The notes beneath the pieces were generated by a model, which was given only the letters and a program-made list of their open reading frames with translations, had not been told where the DNA came from and did not search any database. From assembly GCA_049511795.1 (NCBI GenBank), contig JBEKXS010000001.1, positions 58,514-122,513 of the forward strand: a DNA stretch of 64,000 nucleotides, written 5' to 3'. The DNA comes from Candidatus Pacearchaeota archaeon. GTDB taxonomy: Archaea; Nanobdellota; Nanobdellia; Pacearchaeales; GW2011-AR1. Both the position numbers and the translations under genes were made by a program. Below are positions 48,452 through 51,943 of this stretch, one piece after another (the first letter of the stretch is position 1; every line of letters starts with the position of its first letter).

Positions 48452-51400
48452 ATGGCAAAAACAATCAGAAAAAAAATAAAATCAATAAGCTTTTCATTGC
48501 TTAGCCCTGAGAAAATAAAAAAGCTCTCTGTTGCGAAAATAGTTACGCCAGAACTTTATGATATAGATGGTTATCCTGTCGACGGTGGTTTGATGGATTT
48601 AAGATTGGGAGCAATTGATCCGGGTGTAAGATGTAGAACATGTGGTGGAAGACTGAAAGAATGCCTTGGACACCCCGGAAGTATTGACCTCGCAAGATCT
48701 TTAATACATTTAAAATATGTTCCAATGATTGAGCTCGGATTACGTTGTTTCTGCAAACAATGCGGAAAATTAATGCTTTCTGAAAAAGACCTTGCAAAAT
48801 ACACGCCAAGCCAGAGAATAAAGAAAGCAAAGGATGTAAAGAAATGCCCACACTGCAATACTGTTCAGGAAAAAATAAAGCTTGACAAGCCAACAACATT
48901 CTACAGAGGAAAAACAAGAATATTCCCAACAGAGATAAGAGATACCCTTGTTAATATTCCAGATGAAGAACTTAAAAAAATAGGAATGAATCCTCACAAT
49001 TTCAGGCCAGAATGGGGTGTACTCACAATTCTTCTTGTTCCTCCTGTAACAGTAAGGCCTTCAATTATTCTTGAATCAGGAGAAAGAAGTGAGGATGATT
49101 TAACTCACAAGCTTTCAGATATAATAAGAGCAAATCAGAGACTTTGGGAAAATCTTAATGCTGGAGCGCCAGAGGTTATTATCGAGGATTTGTGGGATTT
49201 GCTTCAATTCCATGTAACAACATTCTTTGATAACACTGTTACAAGAATTCCTCCTGCAAGGCACAGGTCAGGACAGCCATTGAAAACAATCACAGAAAGA
49301 ATAAAGGGTAAGGAAGGAAGAATCAGGAAAAATCTTGCAGGTAAAAGAGTTAATTATTCTGGAAGAACTGTTATCTCTCCTGATCCATCAATGCAGATAA
49401 ATGAAGTTGGAATTCCTTTTGAAATTGCAAAAATTGTAACAGTCGCTGAAACAGTAACTGACCTAAACATTGACAGGCTGAAAAAAAAGGTAGAAAGTGC
49501 AGAAGTTTATCCTGGAGCAAATTATGTAATAAGACCTGATGGAAAACGTAAAAAAATAACGCCAGAATTGAAAGAAGAAATAATCAACGAGCTTGTTCCT
49601 GGATATCAGGTTGAAAGGCATCTTGAAAACGGAGACATTGTTCTTTTCAACCGTCATCCTAGCCTTCACAAAGGAAGCTTGATGGCGCATTATGTAAAAG
49701 TCCTTCCTGGAAGAACATTCAGGCTTCACCCTGCTGCAAAAACACCTTACAATGCTGATTTCGACGGTGATGAAATGAACATTCACAGCCCACAGACAGA
49801 GGAAGCAAGAGCAGAGGCAAAGATTTTGCTTGAAGTAAAGAAAAATCTCATTTCTCCGAAGAATAATACAAACTGGATTGGTTGTCTTGGGGATGCAATA
49901 ACAGGAGATTATCTCATGGGTTTAGAAGAATTTTCAAGAGAAGATGCAAACCAGCTTCTTTACAGCTCTGGAATCGATGGAGAAGTTTCAAAGAAAACAA
50001 TCAGTGGAATAGAATTATTTTCAAAAATACTTCCTAAAATTGATTTCTCAGGCGAAACAGTAAAAATAAAGGACGGACAGATAACAAAGGGTATTCCTGA
50101 CAAGACTCTTTTCGGCGATGAAGATGGTGTCTTGATAAAGGATATAGACAAGAAATTCGGAAGAAATGTTGCATTTGAATCAATAAGAAAAGCGTTCAAT
50201 ATTGGCAAGAATTATCTTACAGGAAGGGGAATAAGCTTCTCTGTAGATGATTTCGATGTTGACCAAAAAATATTTGATATGTCTGAAGAAATTGTCAAAA
50301 AAGCAGAGGAAAAAACAACAGAGATAATCGACGAATACAACAAAGGGACTCTTGAAATCATACAAGGAAAAAGTCTTGAAGAATCAAGGGAAATAAAAAT
50401 TCTTAAGGTTCTTAATGAAGTAAGAACAAAAATAGGAGAAATTGTTAAGGAAGAATTCCCAAAGGACAGTCCTGTCACTTACATGATAAAATCCGGAGGC
50501 GGAGGAAACATGCTTAACATAACACAAATGGCTTGCTGTGTAGGGCAACAGGACTTGGAAGGAAGAAGAATTGATTTGGGATACAATGATAGAACACTTT
50601 CATTTTTCAAGAAAGGGGATTTGAATCCAAAAGCAAAGGGTTTCATAAGAAGCGCATTCATGAAAGGTTTGAAGCCAGAAGAATTTTTCTTCCAGGCAAT
50701 AACAGGAAGATCTTCACTTATGGATACTGCTCTTAGAACGCCAAGGTCTGGTTATTTGTACAGAAGGCTTGCAAATGCACTTCAGGACTTAAGGATGGAA
50801 TATGACAGCACTGTTAGAGACAGCAACAACAACATAATTCAGTTTATTTACGGCGACGATGGAATAGATGTTTCAAAGCTTCATCTTGGAGGAAAACTCG
50901 ACCCTGGTGAAGCAATAGGAATAATTACTGCTCAGAGCTTTGGGGAACCATCAACGCAAATGGTATTGAGAACATTCCACTTTGCAGGTGTCTCTGAAAT
51001 GCAGGTTACGCAAGGACTTCCAAGGCTTATTGAAATATTTGATGCAAGAAAAAAGCCATCAAGCCCTAAAATGGAAATCTATCTGAAAAAAGAATTCAAC
51101 AATGAAAAAGACGCAAGAGTATTCGCAGAAAAAATAAAGGAAGTCACTGTCAGCGATTTTGCATCTGAAATAAACATTGATTTCACTGACAAAAAAATCG
51201 AAGTCAAGATTGACAAGGAAGGATTGCATCAAAGTCATACTTCTGTAAAGAAAATTGTTGAAAGGCTTAAGGAACTTGGATTCTCATGCAATGAAAAAAC
51301 AGATTCAATATCTATCAAAGCGCCGGGAGAGATCAGTTTCAAGGAACTTTACAAGCTAAAAGAAAAATTGAAAAAAACAATTATTTCAGATATAAAGGGA

Positions 51401-51943
51401 GTAAAGCAGATTCTCATCGTAAAAAGAGCAGAAGATTACATTGTCATGACATTGGGAACAAACTTAAAGAGAATATTGGAACTGAAAGAAGTAAACACTC
51501 AAAGAACAATTTCAAATGACCTTCATGAAGTTGCAGATGTTCTTGGCATCGAGGCTGCAAGGCAATTGATAATAAATGAAATACAGGAAGTTTTGAACAC
51601 ACAGGGCCTTGATATAGACAAGAGGCACTTGAAACTTGTCTCTGATGCTATGACAAACACCGGAGAAGTAAAAGGTGTGACAAGAATAGGAATAATCGCG
51701 CAAAAATCCTCGATACTTGCAAGAGCAACATTCGAAACACCTGTAAAGCAATTTGTAAATGCGACGATAAAGGGAAACAAGGACCAGCTTACAAGCGTAA
51801 TTGAAAATGTCATTCTCAACCAGCCAATTCCTGTTGGAACAGGACTACCAGGACTTTTAGTAAAGGTTGTCGGACCTCTCGTAAAGGAAGAATCCAAGAA
51901 GAAGTTTGCAAAAAAAGAAGTTGTAGACGAGGTTGCCAAGTAA
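48452..51943 (+). CDS. rpoA: RNA polymerase subunit A with A' and A'' fused in one ORF
   Basis: N-terminal zinc motifs and the [10 protein letters not shown] active site (A' part). Bridge-helix block [29 protein letters not shown] continues without a stop into the trigger-loop block [29 protein letters not shown] and the A''-type C-terminus. Confidence 0.85.
   Translation: [1163 protein letters not shown]

Follow-up and report, generated by a model that had tools for sequence, protein, structure and literature searches.

In the split systems, which include Sulfolobus (2PMZ/2WAQ), Thermococcus (4QIW), and Woesearchaeota, the largest subunit of the archaeal RNA polymerase (RNAP) is encoded by two genes, one for A' (Rpo1N) and one for A'' (Rpo1C). 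A single gene for the whole largest subunit A is found in Thaumarchaeota, Korarchaeota, Bathyarchaeia, and some Asgard archaea. The unsplit rpoA is textbook knowledge for Thaumarchaeota (PMC4084955), and the sections of Da Cunha et al. 2017 (PLoS Genet; PMC5484517) that deal with this character name it also for Korarchaeota, Bathyarchaeota, and one 'Loki 3' bin, and state 'a secondary fusion in Pacearchaeota'. According to the same sections, whether rpoA is split or fused has served as a rare genomic character in debates on the root of the Archaea and on the relations between eukaryotes and archaea. Here we describe the fused rpoA carried by a stretch of 64,000 nucleotides (nt) from Candidatus Pacearchaeota archaeon (assembly GCA_049511795.1, contig JBEKXS010000001.1, positions 58,514 to 122,513), referred to below as the window. 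The Pacearchaeota fusion of rpoA is already known and the window gene is a further member of it: lineage, gene, and the junction between bridge helix and trigger loop are the same, and no difference was detected from what the relevant sections of PMC5484517 describe. Since the fusion is published and occurs throughout the lineage, the original prediction of a fused subunit, which was made from this DNA alone, loses its novelty and keeps its correctness. To those sections we add the mechanism by deletion, the extent of conservation, the number of species, evidence on selection, and a structural model.

Compared with the split systems, the window protein shows full-length homology, the same catalytic motifs, and the same operon, but it comes from one gene and lacks both the A' tail, of about 24 amino acids (aa) in Sulfolobus, and the A'' addition, of about 53 aa. 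With the unsplit A-type subunits it has in common that one gene encodes the whole chain. The long unsplit A proteins sampled for comparison, mostly Bathyarchaeia-labelled with one from Helarchaeota, differ from it in measuring 1269-1305 aa and in carrying, where the window protein of 1163 aa has 18 residues, a segment of 91-96 residues with the motifs of both the A' tail and the A'' head; unlike them, the window A groups with split DPANN sequences. The eukaryotic Rpb1/Rpc1 and bacterial beta' subunits are likewise single chains, whereas the sequence affinity of the window protein is archaeal. In Rpb1 of Pol II, a large foot domain occupies the place between bridge helix and trigger loop where the window protein has its 18 residues. 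On the evidence below, we put at roughly 0.9 the probability that the gene encodes a genuine and functional largest RNAP subunit, made as one polypeptide and derived from a split gene pair by deletion.

The fused gene and its junction

The open reading frame (ORF) and its parts are placed as follows; the helices cited are those of the AlphaFold2 (AF2) model presented below.

48452..51943, + strand: fused rpoA (Rpo1), largest RNAP subunit, ATG start, 1163 aa, a single ORF in the ORF list and translation
48452..50851, + strand: A' (Rpo1N)-homologous part, residues 1-800, with clamp, active site, funnel, and bridge helix
49751..49780, + strand: catalytic Mg-binding motif, residues 434-443, from the motif position
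50684..50791, + strand: bridge-helix region, about residues 745-780, from the translation and AF2 helices 742-777
50852..50905, + strand: junction linker, 18 residues, residues 801-818
50906..51940, + strand: A'' (Rpo1C)-homologous part, residues 819-1163, beginning at the trigger-loop base without the A'' N-terminal addition

Alignment to RpoA1- and RpoA2-type profiles confirms the prediction that A' and A'' are fused in one 1163-aa ORF. In place of two-gene encoding, the window has one uninterrupted ORF, of which residues 3-817 match the A' profile and residues 809-1132 the A'' profile, in the same frame and without a stop codon or frame change. The NCBIfam A' model NF006336 is matched over model positions 3-869 of 883 with 1046.8 bits (cutoff 819) and the A'' model TIGR02389 over model positions 34-361 of 367 with E = 3e-119; neither A' model positions 870-883 nor A'' model positions 1-33 find a match. 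All five Rpb1 domains of Pfam are present in order in the protein, and the motifs RTPRSGY of the bridge helix (residue 762) and GEPSTQM and FHFAGV of the trigger loop (residues 831 and 842) lie in one frame. The NADFDGD-type catalytic motif is located at residue 434; among 126 fused A sequences most of its residues are invariant and the rest at least 90% conserved, and the bridge-helix and trigger-loop motifs are invariant or nearly so. No second copy of rpoA was found within the window. Residues 3-856 of S. solfataricus A' align to residues 6-806 of the window protein and residues 54-387 of A'' to residues 809-1137, while residues 857-880 of A' and 1-53 of A'' have no counterpart.

We define the linker as the residues between two conserved anchors, one being the ...IIQFIY block that follows the bridge helix and the other the GEAIG... 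block of the trigger-loop base. It is 18 residues long in the window protein, compared with 72-86 residues between the same anchors in the split Woesearchaeota-type loci and in L039, a split species representative introduced below, and with 91-96 in the long unsplit A of Bathyarchaeia and Helarchaeota. In the split relatives, 24-32 aa of the segment belong to the A' tail (GEDGIDVSKSEGGKINVKRII...) and 42-57 aa to the A'' head (M..YEGKLPKKI....EEY..AKI.P). Of the tail the Pacearchaeota linker retains 9-12 residues at the start, and of the head 5-6 residues at the end. Relative to L039, where the A' and A'' genes overlap in different frames (ATGTCTAA), about 57 residues are lost together with the stop/start junction. 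PMC11515920 classes the N-terminal part of A'' as beta'-aD3, an addition specific to archaea that lies outside the universal core. The breakpoints were placed by protein-level alignment, in which the flanks of the window served as anchors in all rows, since at DNA level the junction was too divergent from split L039 for breakpoint placement. The earlier description of the bridge-helix and trigger-loop blocks as running straight into each other where relatives are split is thus right about the site, between bridge helix and trigger loop, and has to be amended in that the junction is not a simple read-through, about 57 flanking residues being gone. The compactness of the protein, also pointed out before, is borne out. 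Counted as stop-to-stop ORFs, A' and A'' of split Woesearchaeota-type relatives add up to about 1232-1251 aa, and the Sulfolobus pair has 880+392 aa, compared with 1163 aa for the window protein; most of this compactness is due to the junction deletion.

What remains of the segment is itself conserved. Residues G801, D803, and D806 vary little or not at all, and H811 persists in 107 of 119 clusters and 32 of 33 species, with Tyr otherwise; the linker is under constraint in both length and sequence.

The isolated subunit was modelled with AF2 from a diverse alignment of 126 sequences, giving a mean predicted local distance difference test score (pLDDT) of 78.4 and a predicted template modelling score (pTM) of 0.72. 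An earlier type of input, 40 close homologues, gave a mean pLDDT of 47.8 with the junction below 50 and was discarded. In the retained model, residues 801-820 have pLDDT values of 84-91 and a short helix (residues 807-812) leads into the trigger-loop helix (residues 822-844), whose neighbouring tip (residues 840-850) is of low confidence, as expected of a mobile element. The whole chain superimposes on the single-chain Rpb1/Rpc1 with TMq of 0.84-0.86, and the short linker is therefore, in the predicted structure, geometrically compatible with the canonical placement of both halves.

Distribution and origin of the fusion

The closest relatives of the window protein come from metagenome-assembled genomes (MAGs) labelled Pacearchaeota, Nanoarchaeota, or Nanoarchaeia, and NCBI taxonomy places Pacearchaeota within the kingdom Nanobdellati (= DPANN). 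The 120 best protein clusters (clustered at 90% identity, 76-96% identical to the window protein) all contain the five Rpb1 domains in one protein. Their lengths are 1147-1176 aa in 118 cases and 1109 aa (labelled partial) and 1151 aa in the other two, and the linker measures 18 aa in 119 of them and 19 aa in one. We also surveyed 80 species-representative genomes for split versus fused rpoA. The 39 Pacearchaeota-type representatives (L001-L038 and L040; 57-76% identity) all have a fused gene and a linker of 18-20 aa, and two ORFs are found in L039 (56% identity) and in the Woesearchaeota-type loci (50-55% identity); identity to the Bathyarchaeia A is about 46%. The survey of close relatives that the original prediction proposed has thus found the whole lineage fused, in 39 of 39 species representatives and 120 of 120 clusters, and the fusion is a reliable clade marker for Pacearchaeota. 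Its supposed value for lineage placement has to be limited accordingly: it marks this clade and says little on deep archaeal placement.

Two loci of the survey deserve a separate remark. In L004 (6001-9465) the Pacearchaeota-type rpoA is broken in its N-terminal half, and the junction-bearing ORF starts at 7453 with the junction intact; this interruption, which may be a frameshift or an assembly error, is not at the junction, and L004 is counted as 'split' in the tree data set. The 2088-aa rpoB-rpoA fusion of L022 was rejected as an artefact, a masked run of N (X) at about 4256-4359 bridging the two genes.

The fused gene can be compared at codon level with that of a near relative, L081, whose protein is 96% identical. 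A total of 334 codons differ synonymously and 45 non-synonymously; strong purifying selection therefore acts on the fused gene.

In a neighbour-joining tree of 74 A or A'+A'' sequences, those with the tight junction group together in one clade, whose sister is the clade of the split Woesearchaeota-type sequences. The segment missing from them is present in split DPANN relatives, in the A'/A'' equivalog profiles, in Sulfolobus, and in the long unsplit A; it is therefore ancestral and the Pacearchaeota state derived. The most parsimonious history suggested by these comparisons would be one in-frame deletion across the A'/A'' boundary on the Pacearchaeota stem. Starting from a split A'/A'' gene pair, the Pacearchaeota ancestor would have undergone one in-frame deletion of about 57 codons, taking out 16-20 residues from the end of the A' tail, the stop/start, and almost the whole 42-55-residue N-terminal helical addition of A''. 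Left over would be the 18-residue linker, running from the strand after the bridge helix directly into the first trigger-loop helix. The catalytic elements would all have stayed intact, and the enzyme is expected to work as other archaeal RNAPs do. We infer in particular that the immediate ancestor was split and not long-fused, that the event was a single one, and that the enzyme is active. The statement that a fused A is the eukaryotic and bacterial state accordingly holds for the single-chain topology, while the Pacearchaeota chain, with its loss of about 57 residues, is a derived form, neither a retained ancestral nor a eukaryote-like one.

Other explanations of the single ORF are conceivable. 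The sequence is probably metagenome-derived, and this is the sole reason for considering that a hidden frameshift or a missed stop codon in assembly or sequencing might have joined two real genes; no sign in support of such an artefact was found. The exact 1163-aa protein is present on 19 contigs, and four assemblies made independently with separate samples and pipelines (Logan SRR12951270 and SRR7027740; ENA ERZ4200889; JGI 3300038417) carry identical DNA, with 0 nt differences in the gene and 0-1 differences from the window across 13.5 kb. There are no homopolymer runs of at least 6 A/T or at least 5 G/C within about 150 nt of the junction. The junction has the same length in 119 of the 120 clusters and 18-20 residues in the 39 species representatives, and a merging error would keep the 72-86-residue junction segment, yet this segment is absent. 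The chance of an artefact is negligible. Hardly any weight can be given, either, to horizontal acquisition of a single-chain subunit from bacteria, eukaryotes, or a virus. Such a transfer would fit the single-chain topology only, against which stand the best-scoring profiles, which are archaeal A'/A'' equivalogs with bacterial beta' models far lower, the nearest solved chains by sequence, which are archaeal Rpo1N and Rpo1C, and the position of the gene at the canonical archaeal operon site in a region of uniform G+C.

It is also highly improbable that the fused gene nonetheless gives two polypeptides by internal initiation or by proteolysis in the linker. A GGAGG string does lie inside the linker (50887-50891), but no in-frame ATG, GTG, or TTG follows it in the remaining linker, a nearby GTG being out of frame, and the Gly-Gly that it encodes is not conserved among other species; an internal translation start at this string was rejected on these grounds. 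The linker is moreover ordered and compact in the AF2 model, and the N-terminal element of free A'' subunits is missing. It is very unlikely that the gene is a primary A-type one that was never split, of the kind known from Thaumarchaeota, Korarchaeota, and Bathyarchaeia, and retained since before the split event in archaea. This reading would agree with the single ORF, which is like that of the A-type, with the known unsplit A of these three groups, and with the uncertain root of the tree. It is opposed by the sampled long unsplit A of Bathyarchaeia and Helarchaeota (1269-1305 aa), which keeps 91-96 residues with A' tail and A'' head motifs where Pacearchaeota have 18, by the clustering of the window protein with the split Woesearchaeota-type (50-56% identity) and not with Bathyarchaeia (about 46%), and by the relevant sections of PMC5484517, which likewise term the Pacearchaeota fusion secondary.

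Several points weigh against derivation of a single functional chain from a split pair. The second A' model, TIGR02390, reaches 1021.3 bits, marginally under its cutoff of 1042.55, and TIGR02389 reaches 398.3 bits against an equivalog cutoff of 420.65, its first 33 model positions being absent. Both shortfalls are in keeping with the loss of junction residues, yet formally the two scores stay below threshold; judged from the alignment, the A'' homology of the C-terminal part is not in doubt. The neighbour-joining tree is midpoint-rooted and carries no support values, and an ancestor with a long unsplit gene may have stood in place of the split pair. The AF2 model is a prediction of the isolated subunit only. 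Finally, the lineage is uncultured, and the case rests on sequence comparison and predicted structure.

The surrounding operon

The gene is embedded in a canonical archaeal operon, rpoH-rpoB-rpoA-nusA-S12-S7-EF2, the other members of which, with two small ORFs, are placed as follows.

44618..44830, + strand: rpoH (Rpo5), 70 aa, first RNAP operon gene; Pfam Rpb5_C recorded for the identical gene in L082-L085
44876..48130, + strand: rpoB, unsplit, 1084 aa; seven Rpb2 Pfam domains
52000..52170 and 52172..52288, + strand: two small hydrophobic ORFs, 56 and 38 aa, in the rpoA-nusA spacer
52375..52785, + strand: NusA-like KH protein, 136 aa; TIGR01952 nusA_arch with E = 4e-15 and 56 bits, under the curated cutoff of 74
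52844..56087, + strand: rps12, rps7, and EF-2; Pfam S12, S7, and EF-G domains

Among the archaeal NCBIfam models, TIGR03670 is matched by rpoB above its cutoff, and the full-length NF006335 with 1316 bits, under its cutoff of 1402.

An orphan ORF of 101 aa (48138..48443, + strand) lies between rpoB and rpoA on a 314-nt insertion relative to L081, where 7 nt separate the rpoB stop from the rpoA ATG. Pfam, NCBIfam, and PHROGs give no match for this ORF, its sole database match is a truncated call of the same sequence, and it is absent from the 80 species representatives and from L081. Two roles were weighed for it, a displaced remnant of the deleted junction and an additional RNAP subunit, and it was rejected for both, having no profile match and being absent from relatives. 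A search for flanking direct repeats found none. Its first codons (MNKTERIK) resemble the start of rpoA (MAKTIRKK), and the insertion of about 314 nt therefore seems to have duplicated the rpoA start region. The spacer from rpoA to the NusA-like gene (51944..52374) measures 431 nt against about 74 nt in L081, that is, about 360 nt extra. L081 has extra small ORFs of its own, one of 113 aa between S12 and S7 and one of 71 aa between S7 and EF-2, and small strain-specific insertions seem to pepper the conserved operon. In many archaea an L30e gene sits between rpoA and nusA. No plausible L30e gene was seen among the ORFs of this gap, for which no L30e profile search was made. Downstream of EF-2, a protein of 568 aa is encoded at 56142..57848 (- strand), with the Pfam domain Ice_binding (PF11999) in the precomputed annotation of identical contigs.

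Compact fusions elsewhere in DPANN and their meaning

Compact fused rpoA genes were also observed outside Pacearchaeota. Linkers of 13-16 aa are found in a large Micrarchaeota/'Norongarragalinales' clade, with about 80 clusters and protein lengths of 1110-1170 aa; those of Micrarchaeales-labelled sequences measure 27-30 aa, those of Altiarchaeota-labelled sequences 22-29 aa, that of one Aenigmatarchaeota MAG 26 aa, and those of LFW-156_1-type genomes 11 aa. The corresponding loci and proteins are:

L073 6001-9453; L062 2988-6368; L045 4818-8252; L054 1022-4516; proteins P0122-P0218: compact fused rpoA outside Pacearchaeota

Some close relatives of these fusions are split. The breakpoints differ, which suggests several independent fusions of the deletion type, and no mention of a fused A in Micrarchaeota or other DPANN besides Pacearchaeota was found in the literature searched. 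We consider it somewhat probable that compact re-fusion of rpoA by deletion is recurrent and convergent in the small-genome DPANN, with the A'' N-terminal addition lost every time.

Two further features of rpoA genes were noticed in the same material. In the sister Woesearchaeota-type MAGs L065 (2187-6327) and L069 (1-4008), the gene order is rpoB, rpoA2 (A''), rpoA1 (A'), both A'' and A' scoring above their equivalog cutoffs. Trigger-loop inteins, inserted directly after GEPGTQM, occur both in split Woesearchaeota-type A'' (L043, L058, and L075; ORFs of 850-902 aa) and in fused A of Micrarchaeota and of the Altiarchaeota type (P0163, P0164, P0167, P0170, P0184, P0191, and P0212), where they are recognised by Pfam Intein_splicing and LAGLIDADG_3.

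The Pacearchaeota finding itself is of low interest and the recurrent DPANN pattern of modest interest. Pacearchaeota are confirmed, from many more genomes than in 2017, as a clean and lineage-wide case of secondary fusion by a small deletion, and the fusion provides no link to eukaryotes or to the unsplit TACK lineages. It amounts to a natural experiment in which the A' tail and the A'' N-terminal addition prove dispensable, as they would be throughout if re-fusion is indeed recurrent. In that case the split or fused state would also change too readily to be of use as a rare genomic character in rooting the Archaea, and several independent compact fusions in DPANN urge caution in treating it as one.

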